The translations under genes were made by a program, and so were the position numbers. DNA of 44,281 bases, from the sequence record SRR31156797_3911; one strand, 5' to 3'. Every line of letters begins with the position of its first letter. Positions within the stretch are counted from its first letter, which is position 1. Shown here piece after piece: positions 1,618 through 33,657 of this stretch. The notes under the pieces are model-generated. The model was not told the origin of the DNA, made no database searches, and worked only from the letters and a program-made list of their open reading frames with translations.

Positions 1618-1965
1618 TCAACCACCGCATGCCGCTGGCGGCTCATGGGATCCTTTGGGCATTCCAAAAGGAATAATAACATCTGCATCGCGCATTTTTT
1701 CGCCGAGTTCTTCCAAAGAAACATTTTCTATTTCAGAACCTTCAGGCATATCTGTTGGTGCTTCAGCGCCACAGCTATACACCTGACCTTCCATATCTGC
1801 GATCCAGGCAATGTTTTCCGTCATATACTCTGTCATATTCGGAAATTCGCCATTCATGATAACCGGGTACGCATAATGATTTTCAACAGCTAGACCCAAT
1901 CCGGAGCGAATACCGTCATTGTATATACGGTTGCCTATCAGGATATATACTTTTAATGATTCCAT
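1618..1965 (-). CDS. DsrE/DsrF-fold protein (sulfur relay cluster)
   Basis: 'DGIRSGLGLAVENH' and 'VSLEELGEKMRDADVIIPF' match the DsrE/F pattern; AAGGAG RBS; operon context. Confidence 0.65.
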   Translation of the reverse strand: MESLKVYILIGNRIYNDGIRSGLGLAVENHYAYPVIMNGEFPNMTEYMTENIAWIADMEGQVYSCGAEAPTDMPEGSEIENVSLEELGEKMRDADVIIPFGMPKGSHEPPAACGG

Positions 1966-1977
1966 ATCGGTATCTCC

Positions 1978-2310
1978 TTACATTACGATATACTTTTCAC
2001 ACTGCTCAAGAATTGCGCCGTGAAAAGCCTGGGTACGCATCTGCTTGTCAACGAGACCACGAGGAATATCTTTTTCGTGATCAAACCCTTCACAGATGTA
2101 GCTGTCAGTACAAATTGCCAGGTCTTCGGTTTTGATGAGCTGTGCCAGCTCCCAAAATTCAGGGCTTTTTGTAAGATGAACAGATTTAAAAGTAAAAAAG
2201 ATCATTACTTCCTTACCAGCGCGTATAGCAGCCTGGGTCAGACCGAGGATGTGACGCATATTCTGGGGGCAGGTAACAAAAATACCGAATTTATTAGCAT
2301 CAGCAGCCAT
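1978..2310 (-). CDS. DsrE-family sulfurtransferase-like protein
   Basis: 'AAIRAGKEVMIFFTFKSVHL' and 'AICTDS' with the conserved Cys; AAGGAGG RBS. Confidence 0.75.
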   Translation of the reverse strand: MAADANKFGIFVTCPQNMRHILGLTQAAIRAGKEVMIFFTFKSVHLTKSPEFWELAQLIKTEDLAICTDSYICEGFDHEKDIPRGLVDKQMRTQAFHGAILEQCEKYIVM

Positions 2311-2349
2311 TAGCTTTTGCCTCCTTAAAAGGATTTGTTAACGATTTAA

Positions 2350-2607
2350 TTATCCTTTCTTGATGAAAAAGCTAATATATCCACTTTCTTCTTTCTCGCC
2401 CAGATACTCGTGACCAGCGCGATCACACCAACCAGGAATGTCGTTTCTGGAACCTGGGTCAGTTCCCATTATGTGGAGAACATCGCCGGCAGCAAGTTTA
2501 CCCATTTCTTTCTTGGTACGGAGCAACGGCATTGGACAGCTCAATCCTTTTGCATCGAGTACGGAAGCAGGCTCGATACCTTCAGGTGCAACTTTTACAT
2601 CACTCAT
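2350..2607 (-). CDS. tusA: Sulfur carrier protein TusA/SirA family
   Basis: LDAKGLSCPMP and TDPGSRNDIPGWC motifs; start moved to ATG at 2607 after AGGAGG. Confidence 0.9.
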   Translation of the reverse strand: MSDVKVAPEGIEPASVLDAKGLSCPMPLLRTKKEMGKLAAGDVLHIMGTDPGSRNDIPGWCDRAGHEYLGEKEESGYISFFIKKG

Positions 2608-2895
2608 TTTTTCCTCCTGATAAAATAACAATTTTAATTGTCTGTTTTGAACATGAAAAAAGACAGTTAAAGGTATAGAAAAAAGGTTTTTTTGTCAAGG
2701 TGAATCAAAAACAAACTGAATAGCTATTCATACAGTGTTTTTCCGTTACTTTTAGTGAATGAATATTCAATGTTGTGTTATAATGGTCTGTTTCATTGAG
2801 GTTATTGACAAATTGAGAGGCTACAGGTATCTTTACCACCTTTTGAGGCTTTTTGAAAAAAAAGGTACTTTATAAAGGGTTTAAGGAGGCAGTGA

Positions 2896-4164
2896 ATGGA
2901 AGACATCAAGATTTTTTGGGACAAAATTAAAAAGTTATATAAAGCCCTCTGCCAGGATGAATGGAGCGCTACTACGACAGGTATTGTTGTAGCACTTCTC
3001 ACAATCCTGATCATGGCATGGTGGCGGCCGTGGGGAGCTGTGGGCGCAATCCGTAACTGGGGTGACTGGATGCTGCATGGTGTTGGTATCTTTAGTGGAG
3101 ATCTCGCTGAATTGACAGGTTTTATTGATGAAGATGGCGATTCTTTGCTCAAGAAGTCCGTTTGGTATAATACTGGATCAGTGATTGGTTTGGGACTTGT
3201 CGGCGGTGCTTTTATTTCAGCGTGCCTGGGCGGACAGTTTGCTTTTCGTTTTCCACCGGTCCGAGAATATGTGAAAGCGATGGTAGCCGGTGTACTGATG
3301 GGTATCGGTGCTGCCTTGGCTGGCGGATGTAATGTTGGCGGTATGTATAATGCCATAGGTAATTTGGCCGCTAATGGCTTTGCCATGTGGGTTGGTCTTA
3401 TTCCTGGAGCATTGTTTGGCCTTTGGCTGCTCTATAAAGAGATGGAACATGTAAGCTGGGGTGGCGGCGGTTCTTTTACCCTGAATATACCTTATCCTGT
3501 CCAATTTGTTTTCGGTGTAGCTGGTATAGGCATTCTTATCTGGGGAGCTGCAAAATATGCAGGGTATGAAGGGGACGACTTTGAAGAGTACATTGCTTCT
3601 CTTTCCGGTCTGGTTCTCATCGCGACTGGTATAGGTTATGCGATGCAGAGAGGTCGCTGGTGCATGATTCAGGGTTTCCGTGAACCGCATATGACCGGTG
3701 ATTCTACCATGGCCAGGTCAGTTGCCCTTTCCATCCTCATAGTAGCGGTTGGTGCTGCAGTATTGAAATATGGGGTTCCTGCTCGTCTTGATGGCGAAGC
3801 GGTTCTGGCTCCTATGAATTATGTTCGCGGCACTTTTGGCTGGGGTGGTGTTGTTGGCGGTTTTGTTTTTGGTGTTGGTGCTATGATGGCTGGTGGCTGC
3901 GGCTCCGGAACACTTTGGCGTGTTGGTGAGGGACAGATAAAACTGTGGTTGGTTGTTCCATTTTTTGCCATCTCCAACTCACTTGTTATTGCCTTATTTA
4001 AGAATTTTGATGTTGAAGCCAATGGTTGGTTGGGTAAGTATGTTTACCTACCGGATGTTTTTGGTTATGGATACACCCTTGGCATTATAGTTCTGTTTGC
4101 TGCACTTTGGTATCTGATAGTGTCGTGGAACGAAGACAGTAATAAGTTGTTGTTGCCTATGTAA
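2896..4164 (+). CDS. YeeE/YedE family thiosulfate/sulfur-compound transporter
   Basis: Multi-TM protein with duplicated GxGAxLAGGC motifs (GGCNVGG, GGCGSG) and RWCM; divergent from tusA. Confidence 0.9.
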   Translation: MEDIKIFWDKIKKLYKALCQDEWSATTTGIVVALLTILIMAWWRPWGAVGAIRNWGDWMLHGVGIFSGDLAELTGFIDEDGDSLLKKSVWYNTGSVIGLGLVGGAFISACLGGQFAFRFPPVREYVKAMVAGVLMGIGAALAGGCNVGGMYNAIGNLAANGFAMWVGLIPGALFGLWLLYKEMEHVSWGGGGSFTLNIPYPVQFVFGVAGIGILIWGAAKYAGYEGDDFEEYIASLSGLVLIATGIGYAMQRGRWCMIQGFREPHMTGDSTMARSVALSILIVAVGAAVLKYGVPARLDGEAVLAPMNYVRGTFGWGGVVGGFVFGVGAMMAGGCGSGTLWRVGEGQIKLWLVVPFFAISNSLVIALFKNFDVEANGWLGKYVYLPDVFGYGYTLGIIVLFAALWYLIVSWNEDSNKLLLPM

Positions 4165-27141: not shown

Positions 27142-30066
27142 TTACAGACTAATGGTGTCGTCAAAGACTGTTTTTGCCCCACCGATCTTTTCCCCGTTGC
27201 CAATAGTTGCTCGGTAGGCGTTTTCTTTGAATCGGCTGAATAAAGGCGCGTACTCACGAAGGGCGTTGATATCTGTACTTATAACTTCGCTTATCCGCTG
27301 CTGTTTGAATGCAGGTGTAATCCCTGAAAGATACTCATTGCGCGCCACAGCTCCACGGGAAGCAGGCCCTTGGTGGGGGGTAAGGTTACCGTAGGTTCCG
27401 ATTATCAGTTGACTGAGCATGTCGTTGCTGATATCAAGGTTGGCAACCGTATCTTGCATTGCATCATAAGCTGCGTAGGTTTTGTCTACCTGCGGGTCCC
27501 GGTAGCTTACAACTCCAAAGTTACCTGTTAAATGGTTGAATTGGATGAAGCAGCCATAAGCCCCTCCTTTTTGGCGGACGGTATTCCACAGGTAATCCCT
27601 CGAAATCCATGTTTTCAGCACTTCAAAACTGCCTTTGTAGCTTTCTGTAGTAGGGAAAAGGGTGCAGCCCTGTACATTGTAAACCACTTCCGCAGAGGTC
27701 GAAAATGCCTGATTTGCAGGCAAGTCGATAAACGCAGATTGGGTTGGTGTTAAAGGACTATCATCCAGGCTAGAAACAATAGCTGGAGCTAATTGCTGAA
27801 AATTTTGTATGTCCTGATGATCTGCTGTGGTGGATATAACCAGTCCCTCTTTCTTGAGCAGAGTATCCTTGATGACCCCAAGAGCCTGCAGGAAATCCTG
27901 CTCCATTTTGTCGTAGTTCAATGCCAACTGCTTCAGTTTGAGGTAAGCGTGCGCGCCGTTAATGTATTCATTGTATTTCCCGGCAATGCTCAGGTTAGAA
28001 AAAACCCTGGTAGAGGCCAGTATGTATCCTTCACTCTGTACAGAATGCTCAGCCCAGGCATATTCCCGCTGCACTATTTCGCGGATACGCTGCCGATTGG
28101 TGAGGTCAACGTCGTTGAAGACCTCCGTTAACAGGTTGAGGGCTCTCTCCAGGTTAGTGGAAAGTGACTTGATGTGAAACCATTGTATAGGCCTGACAGA
28201 GTCCTTGGAGCCAGTTTGGATATAGGCATTGAAGGAGTGAGAGAATCCACCTGTGTACAAGTTTACATCCTTAGTGAATTGCATGTAGTCTTTACCTGCA
28301 GTTCCAATTTCAGTGAAAATGGTGCCGAATAAATCCAGGTAGGGGAGAAGGTCTGTCGAAATGCCTGAACAATCAAGTCCAAAGTCCAGGTAGCAGATTC
28401 CGTTGGTTGGGAGTTCGTTGATGAGAAGTTCGGTGTCGGCAAGACGTTGCGCGGTAGTTGCATATTGTTCGGGGGCCGGGTCAAGGTCGTTAACAATGAG
28501 CCGTGGGAGGAGTTGGAGATTAGAAGGGGAGGGAGGGGTTGATTGAAGTTTTATAAGTTCATGGGTACGTGTTACCAGCGATTGCCGTTGCTGCTCATTG
28601 AGTTGCTGTTCATATTTATGCAGGCGCTCTTGCTCGTGAGTCAAATTTTGCTGTAGTTTATCTGGGTCCGGAGTCAGGGTAACTACGGCTGATGCCTGAT
28701 TGTCAAGAAGGTGCTCTTGGATAAGCTGTTCAAAGTAACCATTTTCAAGGGCATCTCTTCTTATCTCAGCAAACAGTTCTTCCACCTGAAGGGCGGAAAA
28801 GGGGTCTAGCCCGTATTTCATGGCAGGCAGCGCCTTGCCTATAAGGTCTAATCCTCGCTGTGCCTTATTCATTTCTTCCCTGACTGAAAATTCATATTTA
28901 TTCAGCTCAGATAAAACAAGTTCCTGATCGAGTTTCTGGTCGACCATGTTGGCTAGAGTTTTCTGGTAGAGCTTGAGGAAGGCGTCTCTTTTTTCTGGAT
29001 CTGAGCCTATGAGGTAGGTCATCATGATTGTGGTATAGGTGGAGTTATCGAGAAAAAGACCACCAAAGTCATGACACAGACGCTCCTCAATGATAGCATT
29101 TTTAAGAGGAGAGGCATCAGAGTTAAAAAGAATGTGGGCGATAATCTGGAAGGCGGTATTTTTTTTACGCTCGCTCGCAGTCCCGATAATGCTGCTTACA
29201 GCGAGAAACGTTTTTTGAGCCAGTTCTGTGTCGGGTTGAACAGGGTAGCCAGCATCTCTGGAAACCGTATTCTGAACAGGGGTTCCCTGAACTATTTCAG
29301 CACGGGGAACGGGCTCAGGAAACTTACAAAGAAAATTGTTCTCTATAAAAGCAAGCTCCTCGGCAAGTGGTGCATCACCGTAGAAGAAGAACGTGGCATT
29401 TGAGGGATGATAATGATCACGGTGGAATTGAACAAACTGTTCGTAGGTGAGATCCGGAATAGAGGCAGGGGCGCCGCCGGATTCGTGAGCATAGGTTGAG
29501 CCAGGCAATAACCCCTGGTACGTTTGGTGAAAGAGGGAACGAATGGGGTCAGAAAAAGCACCTTTCATTTCATTGAGCACCACTCCGGAATACTCGATTT
29601 TTTCTTCAAGCTTCTCTATATGATAGTGCCACCCTTCCTGTTCAAAAGTTGTTTGCTGCAGCAGAGGATGCAGGGTGACATCACAGTAAACATCCATGAT
29701 GTTAAAATACTCTTTGTTGTTACGGGTGGCAAAAGGGTACCAGGTGGTATCAGCACCGGTCATGGCATTTAGAAAGGTCATTAGCCCACCTTTATTAATT
29801 TCACCAAAAACATCGTGCACCGGATACTTCTTTGACCCCATGAGTACAGAGTGCTCCAGGATATGTGCAACACCTGTCGAATCTTCAGGCACTGTCATAA
29901 AGGAAACGCAGAAGGTTTTGTTGGGATCACCGTTCTTTATGGCAAAGGCGGTGCAGCCAAGGGTGTTGTGTTGGAAACGATAAACAGTGGAATGGATTTC
30001 GGCGATATCCTGTTTGTTGATAAGGGTGAAGTTACTGTATGTATTTCCTTGGATAAATTCAGTCAT
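27142..30066 (-). CDS. M16C family metallopeptidase (presequence protease / insulinase-like)
   Basis: HILEH inverted zinc motif, FLNAMT, NEMKGA, SGG-P, VRQKGGAYG, SYRDP. Confidence 0.93.
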   Translation of the reverse strand: MTEFIQGNTYSNFTLINKQDIAEIHSTVYRFQHNTLGCTAFAIKNGDPNKTFCVSFMTVPEDSTGVAHILEHSVLMGSKKYPVHDVFGEINKGGLMTFLNAMTGADTTWYPFATRNNKEYFNIMDVYCDVTLHPLLQQTTFEQEGWHYHIEKLEEKIEYSGVVLNEMKGAFSDPIRSLFHQTYQGLLPGSTYAHESGGAPASIPDLTYEQFVQFHRDHYHPSNATFFFYGDAPLAEELAFIENNFLCKFPEPVPRAEIVQGTPVQNTVSRDAGYPVQPDTELAQKTFLAVSSIIGTASERKKNTAFQIIAHILFNSDASPLKNAIIEERLCHDFGGLFLDNSTYTTIMMTYLIGSDPEKRDAFLKLYQKTLANMVDQKLDQELVLSELNKYEFSVREEMNKAQRGLDLIGKALPAMKYGLDPFSALQVEELFAEIRRDALENGYFEQLIQEHLLDNQASAVVTLTPDPDKLQQNLTHEQERLHKYEQQLNEQQRQSLVTRTHELIKLQSTPPSPSNLQLLPRLIVNDLDPAPEQYATTAQRLADTELLINELPTNGICYLDFGLDCSGISTDLLPYLDLFGTIFTEIGTAGKDYMQFTKDVNLYTGGFSHSFNAYIQTGSKDSVRPIQWFHIKSLSTNLERALNLLTEVFNDVDLTNRQRIREIVQREYAWAEHSVQSEGYILASTRVFSNLSIAGKYNEYINGAHAYLKLKQLALNYDKMEQDFLQALGVIKDTLLKKEGLVISTTADHQDIQNFQQLAPAIVSSLDDSPLTPTQSAFIDLPANQAFSTSAEVVYNVQGCTLFPTTESYKGSFEVLKTWISRDYLWNTVRQKGGAYGCFIQFNHLTGNFGVVSYRDPQVDKTYAAYDAMQDTVANLDISNDMLSQLIIGTYGNLTPHQGPASRGAVARNEYLSGITPAFKQQRISEVISTDINALREYAPLFSRFKENAYRATIGNGEKIGGAKTVFDDTISL

Positions 30067-30078
30067 GGTCTGTGGTGG

Positions 30079-30528
30079 TTAAAAGGTTTTATGGGAATCA
30101 AGAAGCAGGGTAACGGGGCCTTGGTTGGTAAGAGTAACCTCCATTTCTGCCTGAAAAGTCCCAGTTTGTGGAGGAAATCCTATGCGGGTGCACTCGTCTA
30201 TGAAATCAAGATATAATTGTTGTGCCTTCTGCGGCGGAGCTGCAGACGACCAAGAGGGGCGACGGCCTTTACGACAATCACCATACAGGGTGAATTGAGA
30301 AACGACAAGTAATTGACCGTTCACATTGTTTAAGGACAAGTTCATGATACCATAAGGATCATCGAAAATACGGAGATTGATAATTTTTTCGGCAAGCCAC
30401 TTTATATCCTTATCGGTATCGGTAGAGTGAACACCGAGAAGGATAAGGAGTCCTTTTTCGATGGCTCCAGTGACAACATTATCTACCTTAACATTTGCTT
30501 GGGAAACCCTTTGGATTACAGCTCTCAT
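30079..30528 (-). CDS. dtd: D-aminoacyl-tRNA deacylase
   Basis: MRAVIQRV, SQFTL, GRRPS, NQGPVT; start ATG 30528. Confidence 0.95.
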   Translation of the reverse strand: MRAVIQRVSQANVKVDNVVTGAIEKGLLILLGVHSTDTDKDIKWLAEKIINLRIFDDPYGIMNLSLNNVNGQLLVVSQFTLYGDCRKGRRPSWSSAAPPQKAQQLYLDFIDECTRIGFPPQTGTFQAEMEVTLTNQGPVTLLLDSHKTF

Positions 30529-30691
30529 TGGATGAAATTGGATGTTGGTTATGGAGAAGAGGGGAAGAAAATTCCGAGTGGACCTGAATGACAGGACATG
30601 TTGACGACAATTCGTCATTGGTAATGCCAGGTCTTCGCCTTGTAGTTTGATAGTTAGTAATGGATTGGGTGGATGGCCATGTAGCCAGCCA

Positions 30692-31438
30692 TCAGTTCCT
30701 GGTCGGGACGGAGGCGTATTGGTGACCTGCAGCTAAGACATACTGGATTATAGAGACAGCTGCAATGGTAGCTGTCTCTCCGCGTAAAATGGAGGGCCCT
30801 AGCGAGAAGGGAAGAAAGCCTGATTCAAGGAGGGTGTCTACCTCTTGCCGGTGCCATCCACCTTCTGGACCTATGCAGATGCAAATGGGTCCAGGTTGTC
30901 TGTACATATCAAGGGGGAGAATAGAGGATTCCTCTTTTTCCCACGCGATGTATTTTTGGGTAAAAAAAGAAAAATCAATCTCTTCCAAAGAAGTCTGCTT
31001 ACCGATGTGCATGGGAGTAGGGCGCTTTGACTGTTTGCACGCTTCTACCATGATTCGCTGCCATCGTGAACGCCGATTTTCGTTCTTGGGGTTATGTTCA
31101 CAAAATTGGGTGCAAAGGGGGAGGAGTTGGGCAACTCCAAGTTCGGTCGCTTTTTGAACAACCATTTCCATTTTTTTTCCTTTGAGGACACCCTGGGCCA
31201 AAGTTATGGGAAAAGGGGATTCATGCTCGATTTGTCTTTTCCCAATTACCAGGGCGCGAACTGACTTTTTTGCAGACATATCAAGGGTGGCCAGGTAGAC
31301 ATGTCCGGATCCATCAATAAACTCAACCTGATCACCAGGTTGGAGACGCAAAACGGTTGAAATATGATGGGCTTCTGAGCCGGATATGGTGATACAGTTA
31401 TCCTGAATGGATTCAGGAGTAATAAAAAATCGACGCAT
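30692..31438 (-). CDS. rsmE: 16S rRNA m3U1498 methyltransferase
   Basis: HHISTVLRL, QKATELGV, EACKQS, IGPEGG, LGPSILRGETA. Confidence 0.94.
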   Translation of the reverse strand: MRRFFITPESIQDNCITISGSEAHHISTVLRLQPGDQVEFIDGSGHVYLATLDMSAKKSVRALVIGKRQIEHESPFPITLAQGVLKGKKMEMVVQKATELGVAQLLPLCTQFCEHNPKNENRRSRWQRIMVEACKQSKRPTPMHIGKQTSLEEIDFSFFTQKYIAWEKEESSILPLDMYRQPGPICICIGPEGGWHRQEVDTLLESGFLPFSLGPSILRGETATIAAVSIIQYVLAAGHQYASVPTRN

Positions 31439-31553
31439 GGAGTGTACTTGGACCGAAGAATGAGGAAAACGATACGATTATTAGAGCATACCGACTATCC
31501 TAATGACTCTGACATGTTGATGCAACCGGGAAAACAAAGGAATCTAAACTACC

Positions 31554-31590
31554 AAAAAAAAGGGCACCCCTTTTTCAAGAGGTACCCTTT
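31554..31590 (-). terminator. Intrinsic terminator of the selenopeptide gene
   Basis: Minus strand AAAGGGTACCTCTT-GAAA-AAGGGGTGCCCTTTTTTTT. Confidence 0.85.
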
Positions 31591-31622
31591 GTATCATACG
31601 TGCAACCTGCACGCGCTTATTT

Positions 31623-31958
31623 TTAGCTTCAGCCGCTTTTTCCAACTGGCTTTTTTACTTGTTCCCCAGTCTTATCTATGGCTTTTCCCGTTTCATCTTT
31701 GGCAGCATCTGTGGCGGTATCGACTGCTTTGTCGACCGTTTCGTTTACGTGTTTTTCAGCGCTCCCGGCGCTGGTTTTATCACCACCTCAGCCACTCGTT
31801 CCAGCAGGCTTCTTGACTTCGCTAGCGCTCCCGGCGCTAGGCTTGGCACCTCAGCCGCTGCCAGCGGCGTGTGCATTCGGTATCGAAACACCTCCTGCAC
31901 TGATCAGGCCGGCAACGCTAAGCCCGGCAAGCAACTTGTGGAGTTCTTTTTTCTTCAT
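31623..31958 (-). CDS. Predicted triple-selenocysteine secreted peptide / RiPP precursor, SbtA ('selenobiotic') family-like (111 aa, UGA at codons 36, 57, 110)
   Basis: AGGGAGG RBS; MKKKELHKLLAGLSVAGLISAGGVSIPNAHAAGSG-U-GAKPSAGSASEVKKPAGTSG-U-GGDKTSAGSAEKHVNETVDKAVDTATDAAKDETGKAIDKTGEQVKKPVGKSG-U-S-TAA; a hairpin 10-14 nt after each UGA; own terminator. Confidence 0.85.
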
Positions 31959-32111
31959 AACATCCTCCCTGAAAGGAAATTAATGAGGAGAAAAACAGAA
32001 AGAGTTCACCTATGGCTCACTGCTTTTCCATAGGAATACTATATTTGAATTTGAAAAGATGTCAAGGGGGGCTGGGCAGCATAGAGTTGAGGTAGCCAGC
32101 AGTGAAGATTT

Positions 32112-32588
32112 TCAAGAGATCCGCTTGTATTCAGTTATTCTATAGTTAATGGGACCAAGGGAGTGGACGGTACCGACAGCTTTGAACTTTTTGGAAGGGA
32201 TATTGGGAAAAAAAGTGTCCCCTTCAAATTCCTGTTCGATGAGGGTGATTAAAAGCGTATTTGCCCTGTCCATGGCATCTTTATAGAGCTGGGCACCACC
32301 GATAATGAAAACACGACTGTCTTTTGCACATAAGGACAGGGCATGTTGCAGTGTTGGAACAAAAATACAACCATCAAAGAGACCTTTTTTCCTGCTGGTG
32401 ATGATAATATTTTGTCTCCCAGGTAGTGGTCGGCCGATAGACTCGAAGGTCTTACGGCCCATGATGATGGGGTGCCCCATTGTAATATGTTTGAAAAAAT
32501 ACTGCTCAGATGGGAGGTGCCATGGGATGGCGTTCTTGTAGCCAATAACACCAGTTGGAGTCATGGCTGCAATGATGATTATTTCCAA
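32112..32588 (-). CDS. folA: Dihydrofolate reductase
   Basis: IIAAM...VIG...IPWHLP, IMGRKTFESIGRPLPGRQN, IIGGAQLY, GDTFFP; start probably TTG 32588. Confidence 0.93.
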   Translation of the reverse strand: MEIIIIAAMTPTGVIGYKNAIPWHLPSEQYFFKHITMGHPIIMGRKTFESIGRPLPGRQNIIITSRKKGLFDGCIFVPTLQHALSLCAKDSRVFIIGGAQLYKDAMDRANTLLITLIEQEFEGDTFFPNIPSKKFKAVGTVHSLGPINYRITEYKRIS

Positions 32589-32709
32589 AACAAGACCTTG
32601 TTGTTGCAAAATAGAAATGAGCGCTTGCAAATATTTTATGATCCATTTTAAGGTGCTTCTGTTTTTTGAGCAAGCAAAGTTAACAAATTATAATACAGAG
32701 GAGTGGGCT

Positions 32710-33657
32710 ATGCGATTTTTAATATATGGAGCAGGGGCTTTGGGACAGGCAATTGGCTGCATGCTGGCTACTAAGGGACACGAGGTTGACCTCGTGTTGC
32801 GAGAACGTTTTAAAAAAGTTCTCGAAAGTAAAGGACTTAAGGTGACCGGCATTTTTGGCGATTACGAGGTAGCTCCAGGTACGTTGAATTTGGTAACGAA
32901 TTTGAGTTGTCTTGACGGCAGTCCATATGAGTATGTCCTTATTACAACCAAGGCATATGACACAGAAGGGGCAGTCAAAGACATCGCAAACCTTGATGGC
33001 TTTACCGGTATGGTTGTCTCCATGCAAAACGGATGTGGAAATGTGGAACAGGTCGTGGCAGCTTTTGGCCTTGATCGAACGCTGGGTGCCAGGGTGATTA
33101 CAGGGTTTGAAATTGAGCGTCCTGGCACTGTCCGGATAACTGTCTCGGCCGATGATGTACATGTGGGTGGATGTCAACAGGGACATATCCCAGAGGCAGC
33201 GGTCCGGTTTGCCGAGGCTATCCATGGAGCAGGCCTGCCTTGTTGTGCAGTGGACGCTATCTACAAGGACCTGTTTGCTAAGCTGCTATATAATTGTGCC
33301 CTAAACCCTTTGGGGGCGATATTGGGGGTACACTATGGTGCGCTGTCTGATAGTGACGATTGCAGAGATATCATGGACAAAGTGATTGAAGAGACCTTTA
33401 TGGTCATAGATGCCATGGGATTTACGACCCACTGGCCGTCAGCTAGAGACTATAAGGATATTTTTTACGGTAAATTGGTTCCAATAACCTATGATCATAG
33501 GCCTTCTATGTTGCAAGATATTGAACACGAAAAGCCAACTGAAGTGGAAGCGCTCATCGGCTATGTTGCTGCACAGGGAAAGAAACGAGAGGTGGCGACA
33601 CCAACCTGCGATGTCCTTGCGGCACTTGTACGTTTCAAAGAGAAGCAAACATGTTAA
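32710..33657 (+). CDS. panE: 2-dehydropantoate 2-reductase (ketopantoate reductase)
   Basis: IYGAGALG, TKAYD, MQNG, KLLYNCALNP, SMLQD, TEVEALIG; start ATG 32710. Confidence 0.9.
   Translation: MRFLIYGAGALGQAIGCMLATKGHEVDLVLRERFKKVLESKGLKVTGIFGDYEVAPGTLNLVTNLSCLDGSPYEYVLITTKAYDTEGAVKDIANLDGFTGMVVSMQNGCGNVEQVVAAFGLDRTLGARVITGFEIERPGTVRITVSADDVHVGGCQQGHIPEAAVRFAEAIHGAGLPCCAVDAIYKDLFAKLLYNCALNPLGAILGVHYGALSDSDDCRDIMDKVIEETFMVIDAMGFTTHWPSARDYKDIFYGKLVPITYDHRPSMLQDIEHEKPTEVEALIGYVAAQGKKREVATPTCDVLAALVRFKEKQTC

Follow-up and report, generated by a model that had tools for sequence, protein, structure and literature searches.

A predicted SbtA-family peptide precursor with three in-frame UGA codons and a probably unlinked maturase in a Desulfobulbaceae bacterium

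Introduction

Does a reading frame that is crossed by three TGA codons encode one peptide precursor with three selenocysteine (Sec) residues? The question is raised by a 44 kb stretch of DNA (44,281 nt, sequence record SRR31156797_3911), which is called the window here; coordinates without a locus name are positions in it, and the gene concerned, sbtA, lies on its minus strand. An earlier note, made from the letters alone, had proposed at this place a hidden precursor of the SbtA type, the substrate of a radical S-adenosylmethionine (SAM) enzyme. Judging from sequence comparison, the whole of the following reading is very likely: a monocistronic sbtA gene of a Desulfobulbaceae bacterium encodes a 111-residue SbtA-family (TIGR04081) precursor, its three UGA codons specify Sec, and the product is modified by an unlinked SbtM enzyme and exported.

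The SbtA family and the chemistry of its maturase SbtM are already known. That chemistry is reportedly the subject of a study by Lewis et al. in Biochemistry in 2021. Passages of PMC9204691 state that SbtM colocalises with a Sec-containing peptide and that more recent annotation points to 'at least two SeCys' in it. When SbtM acts on a minimal synthetic peptide, they report, the Gly-Cys/SeCys motif loses 4 Da and a thio(seleno)oxazole results; they liken the chemistry to that of the sulfatase-maturating enzyme anSME. An excerpt of PMC11002830 summarizes the same work (Gly-Cys/Sec to thio(seleno)oxazole). In Table 1 of a 2026 review (PMC13188914) the family is entered as 'Selenobacteriocin, TIGR04081, SGUG, 2 Sec, WP_074187118.1', and the accompanying passage says that prokaryotic selenoproteins mostly have one Sec, with a small subset having 2-3. 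The novelty implied by the earlier note is therefore not upheld by these excerpts: the family is catalogued, its maturase chemistry was published in 2021, more than one Sec had already been stated, and three Sec are common in the family, as described below.

Results

A single frame runs from a ribosome-binding site through three TGA codons to a TAA codon. The ribosome-binding site AGGGAGG (31970..31964, minus strand) is 5 nt ahead of the ATG start codon (31958..31956) and is invariant in three orthologues. With TGA read as Sec (U), the coding sequence (31958..31623, minus strand) has 111 residues and ends in TAA at 31625-31623. The first TGA is codon 36 (31853-31851), in the context AAGSG-U-G; the second is codon 57 (31790-31788), 63 nt after the first, in the context KKPAGTSG-U-G; and the third is codon 110 (31631-31629), in the context KKPVGKSG-U-S-stop. 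All three are conserved in the two closest orthologous loci, L001 and L002, the third as TGA AGC TAA. The translated precursor is MKKKELHKLLAGLSVAGLISAGGVSIPNAHA-AGSGU-GAKPSAGSASEVKKPAGTSGU-GGDKTSAGSAEKHVNETVDKAVDTATDAAKDETGKAIDKTGEQVKKPVGKSGU-S. Reading and translating the minus strand reproduced every coordinate that had been given for the ribosome-binding site, the ATG, the leader ending in AHA, the three TGA codons and the TAA, and the contexts claimed for the TGA codons agree with the translation. The core motifs are SG-U-G, SG-U-G and SG-U-S, that is, Gly-Sec in a motif of the SGUG type by which SbtA is recognized.

The gene appears to be monocistronic, because it has a promoter-like site of its own and a terminator-like hairpin with a T-run. 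The promoter-like site is of the sigma-70 type (TTGACA-16 nt-TATAGT; 32065..32038, minus strand) and agrees with the consensus at 11 of 12 positions, a match to consensus only. A terminator 3' of the TAA had been claimed earlier, and a hairpin like that of an intrinsic terminator is present there (31590..31559, minus strand), with 14 pairs, six of them G-C, followed by eight T residues.

The leader places the gene in the SbtA family. Residues 1-27 (31958..31878, minus strand) match positions 1-27 of the 27 positions of NCBIfam profile TIGR04081, named 'SbtA family thio(seleno)oxazole RiPP natural product precursor' (RiPP, ribosomally synthesized and post-translationally modified peptide). The match has an E value of 4.4e-12 and scores 45.5 bits, where the curated cut-off is 30.5. 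The earlier note had named this family, and the search with the TGA=Sec translation bears it out. The gene is a real, genuine SbtA-family precursor, a further member of a described family. In Pfam, protein P0001 gave only chance-level matches; a precomputed label, PF27804.1, is attached to all 18 of 18 public homologues.

The leader also looks like a signal peptide of the general secretory pathway ending in AHA|A. Its residues 1-9 have a net charge of +3, mean hydropathy over residues 9-19 is 2.35, and AHA is found at residues 29-31. Among 16 aligned family leaders, three have a lipobox Cys at position 29, and the others have AxA-type ends there. These features suggest that the precursor may be secreted.

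Coding constraint continues past the TGA codons. In an orthologue scan with one genome per species, the close relatives are L001, from a Desulfobulbus sp. metagenome-assembled genome (MAG; genome G001), with 91% amino acid identity, and L002, from Desulfogranum marinum DSM 2058 (genome G002; its locus is also numbered L021), with 79%. Over about 20 kb each can be aligned collinearly with the window, L001 at 87% and L002 at 82% nucleotide identity. Each has the three TGA codons in frame, and the DNA alignment of window, L001 and L002 has two indels, both of 3 nt. Substitutions at the first, second and third codon positions number 1, 0 and 6 between TGA 1 and TGA 2 and 4, 1 and 14 between TGA 2 and TGA 3 for L001; for L002 they number 3, 0 and 3, and 7, 4 and 16. 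This bias toward third positions after TGA 1 and after TGA 2 shows that the frame is under coding constraint beyond the 'stops'. In other family members Cys is found at the UGA positions, in the same S/G-G-x motif (SGC, SCG, TGC): L054, L063, L064, L042/L046/L051 and an all-Cys second copy in G311. Such Cys homologues were among the things that the earlier note expected. The weak loci of the scan, L003 (Rhodopirellula) and L004 (Rikenellaceae), were taken to be low-complexity matches.

Each of the three TGA codons is followed after 13-17 nt by a GC-rich hairpin like a bacterial Sec insertion sequence (SECIS). A SECIS directly downstream of the UGA is a further mark of SbtA, and the stems here start at +13/14, +17 and +17. 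Hairpin 1, (C)UAGCGC-CGGGA-GCGCUA(G), is at 31842..31820; hairpin 2, CAGCGC-CGGGA-GCGCUG, is at 31776..31754; and hairpin 3, GCGUGC-AGGUU-GCACGU, is in the 3' untranslated region (UTR) at 31617..31595, all on the minus strand. The hairpins have the same sequence in the window, L001 and L002, save for a single loop base of L002 that is not in hairpin 1, and the 3'-UTR segment CGCGTGCAGGTTGCACGTAT is invariant in the three species while the flanking UTR is variable. Hairpins 1 and 2 encode the peptide SAGSA, so part of the 'repeated motif' that had been noticed is an RNA constraint. The Ser-Gly upstream of the TGA codons is a peptide-level motif.

Similar hairpins are found across the family and show covariation. 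In 29 family precursors read through TGA, 78 TGA codons were listed, and for 67 of them the minimum-free-energy (MFE) fold contains a hairpin of 5 bp or more that begins 8-30 nt downstream. The other 11 include read-through artefacts past the true end and cases with a visible hairpin where the MFE calculation chose another fold. The distant members, with the window, L001, L021 and L038 left out, supplied 44 distinct hairpins. Seven with an uncommon loop type were dropped (L042_210, L046_210, L051_213, L053_291, L061_117, L061_234 and L063_381), and the remaining 37 form a gap-free alignment, A2, in which loop position 2 (G11) is G throughout. In the 7-pair helix of A2 89.2% of cells are paired, a percentage inflated by the picking of hairpins by folding and the dropping of 7 of the 44; slid registers give 27-47%. 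Every pair has been changed on both sides (66 cells), and the covariation score is 0.620, compared with 0.247 +/- 0.022 in shuffled alignments, none of which (0 of 500) scored as high.

A model that contains none of the window's hairpins ranks them above everything else in the window. The covariance model R1 was built from A2, which excludes the window and its three closest relatives. A search of both strands of the window with filters off (E<=10) gave nine matches, of which the top three are hairpin 2 (25.1 bits, E 0.001), hairpin 1 (21.2 bits, E 0.0092) and hairpin 3 (17.3 bits, E 0.085); the fourth scores 10.6 bits. The claim that three chance stops would not recur in this way thus received independent support, since the hairpins behind them rank first to third in 44 kb. 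In other sequences outside the model, R1 finds three, three and four sbtA hairpins in L001, L002 and L038. A pattern of a 6-bp stem with a 5-nt xG(G/T)xx loop at +12..+19, chosen post hoc after the data had been seen, fits 8 of the 1668 TGA triplets on both strands of the window, and three of the eight are the in-frame TGA codons of sbtA. As a separate observation, D. marinum has an extra R1 match of 13.5 bits outside sbtA (L002:8106-8128), which has no counterpart among the matches in the window.

Three Sec codons are typical of the family. By our reading of the 29 precursors, four have four credible Sec codons (L038, L040, L041 and L053), 11 have three, including that of the window, 11 have two, two have one, and one has none. 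Since 26 of the 29 have 2-4 Sec TGA codons, the number in the window is not exceptional. The terminal motif TGA is followed by TAA or TAG within 3-33 nt (1-11 codons) in 24 of 26 precursors, with about a dozen types of tail, and the family hairpin is found beyond the stop codon behind terminal motif TGA codons too.

Other arrangements of the Sec codons were seen in some members. In the four-Sec precursors (L038 in G162, L040 in G201, L041 in G260 and L053 in G311) each of the four motif TGA codons has a hairpin of the family type; this exceeds the upper range of 2-3 Sec given for prokaryotic selenoproteins in the passage of PMC13188914. Tandem motif TGA codons 9-15 nt apart (SGUG-xSGUG, SSU-SSU), with a single hairpin after them, are found in L045, L047, L049, L050 and L053, and one SECIS may serve two UGA codons at different distances there. 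A unit of 63 nt from TGA to TGA is present twice in tandem in L038:1605-1770 and once in the window (31790-31853). It appears that the number of Sec codons changes by duplication of a cassette of UGA, SECIS and linker.

The closest relatives of the window encode SbtM and the Sec machinery. SbtM scores 654.2 bits in G001 and 666.7 bits in G002 (cut-off 350). Both genomes have selB and selA over cut-off, with the selA of G001 partial at a contig end, and both have selD with one in-frame TGA. This selD is itself a selenoprotein gene (L035:1531 and L036:1531; VxAAG-U-AAKLGPGDL), and in its SECIS a GC stem of 8 bp begins at +15 and the loop contains GG, which is the geometry of the sbtA hairpins in another sequence. 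For tRNA-Sec the match in G002 scores 72.4 bits (gathering score 47). Each genome has one TIGR04081 match over cut-off, on a contig other than that of sbtM (sbtA/sbtM: C55/C22 in G002 and C200/C46 in G001). Similarly, G162 has one SbtM over cut-off, on a contig other than that of its sbtA.

In the phylum at large sbtA and sbtM occur together and usually side by side. A sample of 401 Desulfobacterota genomes contains 30 with TIGR04081 leader matches (27 over cut-off) and 30 with SbtM over cut-off; 28 have both. Two have SbtA without SbtM (G230 and G284, weak or false matches) and two have SbtM without SbtA (G172 and G382). The two genes are within about 1 kb of each other in 26 of the 28 genomes, and the exceptions, G002 and G162, are the closest relatives of the window. 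An additional, unlinked sbtA copy is found in G171, G201 and G260. RiPP clusters of such a kind usually include exporter and protease genes. The four canonical sbtA-sbtM loci have no other gene in common, and no common exporter, protease or immunity gene.

Two side observations concern sbtM loci. A gene for an ABC-F type ATPase is near sbtM in two unrelated contexts (L005:3-938 in G002 and L083:8870-10810 in G222), probably by coincidence. G060 has a second SbtM (G060:C33:6850-8600, 702.9 bits) adjoining a second leader match of 35.1 bits, which lies inside an open frame of 391 codons and is possibly a long or fused form of SbtA.

The predicted structure of SbtM suggests a domain for binding the leader. 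In a model of the G002 enzyme (predicted local distance difference test, pLDDT, 83), residues ~138-480 align with radical SAM/SPASM peptide maturases and anSME; the matches include SkfB (Z 25.1), SuiB (Z 24.3), anSME (Z 23.4) and CteB (Z 23.2). Folded alone, the N-terminal 140 residues form a beta3-alpha3 domain (pLDDT 91.5). Thirteen of the 18 best structural matches of this domain are RiPP-pathway proteins, matched at their leader-binding regions (RiPP recognition elements, RREs), with modest Z scores of 3.6-8.0 obtained from a relative's SbtM and not from one of the window. They include TglI (8.0), TbtB (6.7), MibB (6.6), a lasso B1 protein with leader (5.9), TigE (5.1), TbiB1 (4.9), NisB (4.6), MccB (4.4), CteB (4.2) and PqqD (3.6). 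The matches support, but do not prove, RRE-type recognition of the conserved leader by SbtM.

Public annotation shows the gene mostly as a short peptide. A search of 5.8 billion protein clusters found two relatives of near full length, the metagenome proteins P0002 and P0003, which have W at the three motif positions (SGWG) and come from contigs of 929 and 1089 bp. Most likely they were translated with a TGA=Trp code, the genetic code having been mis-assigned due to the Sec codons. Among the shorter matches, 14 of 16 have 33-35 aa, and three carry the Joint Genome Institute (JGI) name 'radical SAM modification target selenobiotic family peptide'. One public call of 35 aa is on a contig of 27,516 bp, a length equal to that of the contig with L001. 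These calls bear out the truncation at 35 aa that the earlier note had predicted for standard annotation.

Discussion

The results are consistent with a selenopeptide that is modified at several sites. Such a multi-core product, as proposed in the earlier note, is supported by the conserved TGA codons of the orthologues, the SECIS-like hairpins, the Cys homologues, and the Sec machinery and SbtM of the closest relatives. It is very probable that all three in-frame UGA codons are read as Sec. Each would have a SECIS hairpin of the bacterial type to itself, 13-17 nt downstream; two of the hairpins would act within coding sequence, where they dictate SAGSA, and the third past the TAA stop. The Ser-Gly-Sec motifs would be the targets of SbtM, a radical-SAM/SPASM enzyme reported to form a thio(seleno)oxazole at Gly-Cys/Sec and probably encoded elsewhere in the genome in this lineage. 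SbtM probably binds the conserved N-terminal leader through its N-terminal RRE-like domain and may convert up to three Gly-Sec sites. The modified peptide of ~80 residues is probably then exported, and the leader would be removed by signal peptidase. The signal-peptide features, the leaders with a lipobox, and the lack of a dedicated exporter or protease at the canonical loci suggest this order of events, modification in the cytoplasm followed by export through the general secretory pathway, by analogy with anSME and its sulfatases.

Several results weigh against this reading. None of the genes in the window is selA, selB or selD, and no tRNA gene is found in it; in the G001 MAG, tRNA-Sec gave no match over cut-off. 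SbtM is likewise missing from the window, since TIGR04082 has no match among its ORFs of at least 90 aa, and sbtM is not adjacent to sbtA here as it is in 26 of 28 genomes, so the link between enzyme and substrate rests on their co-occurrence in relatives. The 54-nt stretches after the TGA codons fold no better than shuffled sequences (z of +1.42, -0.65 and -0.46). Fold energy was discarded as a test for these hairpins because they are short. In Rfam, the region 30500-33000 (E<=10) had matches at chance level only, with no SECIS family among them. R1 gave no match at the selD loci of the relatives (L035 and L036), from which it follows that the sbtA hairpins are family-specific in sequence. 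The modest RRE matches and the selection behind A2 also belong on this side, as does an antisense frame of ~118-122 codons that is open in all three species.

Two alternatives take a TGA codon for a real stop. The peptide may have only two Sec, with TGA 3 ending the protein at ...KKPVGKSG and the GGUU hairpin of the 3' UTR serving, for example, mRNA stability. Hairpin 3 is the weakest of the three by R1 (17.3 bits, E 0.085), a single codon separates TGA 3 from TAA, and the terminator is close behind. However, the KSG-TGA context equals that of the two internal sites, hairpin 3 is still the third-best R1 match in 44 kb and is invariant in three species next to variable UTR, and 24 of the 26 terminal motif TGA codons in the family are followed by TAA or TAG in 1-11 codons, with the same kind of hairpin past the stop. 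A product with two Sec is therefore unlikely. It is very improbable that translation ends at TGA 1, giving only a 35-residue peptide and leaving the downstream conservation to some other cause. The calls of 33-35 aa for 14 of 16 short public homologues and of 35 aa on the contig of L001 fit such a peptide, but gene callers stop at TGA by design, and the sole two near-length public calls read the TGA codons as W. Moreover, the frame, the 3-nt indels and the third-position bias run on through 76 further codons in three species, no TAA or TAG occurs for 111 codons, a hairpin is found behind every TGA, and Cys replaces TGA in family members.

It is also improbable that the product is a secreted selenoprotein with three Sec that SbtM does not process, the unlinking of the genes reflecting a loss of modification and the N-terminus being merely a signal peptide. 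This agrees with the absence of sbtM from the window (among ORFs of at least 90 aa), its location on another contig in G001, G002 and G162, the signal-peptide features, and the lipobox Cys at position 29 in 3 of 16 family leaders. On the other hand, G001, G002 and G162 have retained one SbtM each, over cut-off, and G001 and G002 have one sbtA match each. The Gly-Sec target motif is present at all three sites, SbtM has kept its RRE-like domain, and the leader is conserved beyond the generic properties of a signal peptide, which is why the TIGR04081 profile matches it. Finally, an antisense ORF or a non-coding RNA could be the real feature and the sense ORF fortuitous, but this is hardly credible. 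On the plus strand, ORFs of 101-124 aa overlap this region, one antisense frame is open in both L001 and L002, and third-position bias does not by itself discriminate against an antisense frame that shares third positions. At E<=1 no Pfam family matches the antisense ORFs, and these lack the signals of the sense strand, which has the promoter, ribosome-binding site, ATG, curated family match and terminator, and whose family recurs adjoining sbtM in 26 of 28 genomes.

With three Sec and processing by SbtM as the preferred reading, the window gene resembles the described SbtA/SbtM system (TIGR04081/TIGR04082) in most respects. It shares the leader over cut-off, the S-G-U-G motif with a SECIS immediately behind the UGA, the Desulfobacterota lineage, and a single SbtM in the closest relatives. 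It differs in having three Sec where two are listed, and in a last Sec one residue from the C-terminus, whose SECIS is past the stop codon. It also differs in that sbtM is not adjacent (it is on another contig in G001, G002 and G162) and that the gene stands alone between rsmE and folA.

The substrates of anSME, sulfatases, have a signal peptide and are modified in the cytoplasm before export. By our reading SbtA would be alike in having a signal peptide, and its modification would likewise have to come before export. The core of SbtM aligns with anSMEcpe (4K38; Z 23.4, root-mean-square deviation 3.4, 304 residues), and both enzymes oxidize a Cys-type side chain. Unlike SbtM, anSME does not cover the extra N-terminal RRE-like domain, the matches starting at residue 160 of the SbtM model; in addition, the product of SbtM is a heterocycle and not formylglycine, and its substrate is a short, low-complexity peptide. 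SkfB, SuiB and CteB, radical SAM/SPASM RiPP maturases with an RRE, are the best whole-chain matches to the SbtM model (Z 25.1, 24.3 and 23.2), and leader-binding domains (TigE residues 3-86, CteB 1-69 and lasso B1 bound to leader) match its N-terminal domain. In contrast, the SkfB, SuiB, CteB and TigE systems involve no selenocysteine, their enzymes cross-linking Cys-containing precursors through thioether or C-C bonds, and the four sbtA-sbtM loci are without a common exporter or protease gene.

Other selenoproteins share single features with the precursor. Animal selenoprotein P is a multi-Sec protein that uses distal 3'-UTR elements. Like the window precursor it has several Sec in one polypeptide, but in the window the UGA codons each have their own adjacent hairpin, in the bacterial manner, and the internal hairpins double as coding sequence. 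Bacterial C-terminal-Sec families of the '-star' type place their SECIS in the 3' UTR. Two of these, UXX-star and KCU-star, which are named in the excerpt of Table 1 of PMC13188914, resemble the window gene, whose third Sec is next to the stop codon.

Gene calling based on stop codons hides most of the SbtA family; among the 5.8 billion protein clusters the close relatives of the window precursor are found almost solely as stubs of 33-35 residues or as the two Trp calls. The catalogued picture of two Sec and an sbtM gene next door is extended by precursors in which each of three or four Sec codons has a hairpin of its own. The last of these hairpins can be situated past the stop codon, and sbtM need not be linked to the precursor gene. 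Desulfogranum marinum DSM 2058, a cultivable strain, offers a way to identify the mature product.

A tentative and rather doubtful suggestion can be made about function. SbtA might be a housekeeping factor of the periplasm that binds metals or metalloids or acts in redox reactions, and not a bacteriocin-like antibiotic. It would be exported by the general secretory pathway, and lipid-anchored in some species, and would carry 2-4 seleno-oxazole or selenol groups on flexible charged linkers. The module would consist of two genes without a dedicated exporter or protease, and the 63-nt cassette of UGA, SECIS and linker would be duplicated to change the number of these groups.

Elsewhere in the window, 1618-4164 is a cluster that handles sulfur or selenium. 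It includes a TusA-like gene (2350-2631, minus strand), two small ORFs (1978-2310 and 1618-1965, minus strand) and a YedE/FdhT/TsuA-like membrane protein gene (2896-4164, plus strand). Hidden Sec was considered in the DsrE/TusA-like ORFs (1618-2631) and rejected: the TGA behind ...ACGG is a normal stop codon, after which come the ribosome-binding site and ATG of the next gene.

The genes around sbtA, which stands alone with rsmE and folA on either side, form a conserved housekeeping neighbourhood. Upstream are folA (same strand), panE (opposite strand) and then recA, cinA, mtaB and mnmA. Downstream on the same strand are rsmE, dtd and a gene for an M16 peptidase. M16-family peptidases process some RiPP precursors. 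The one here (27142-30066) is pitrilysin-like and has 974 aa; its gene is 1.5 kb downstream of sbtA, an arrangement that L001 and L002 share.

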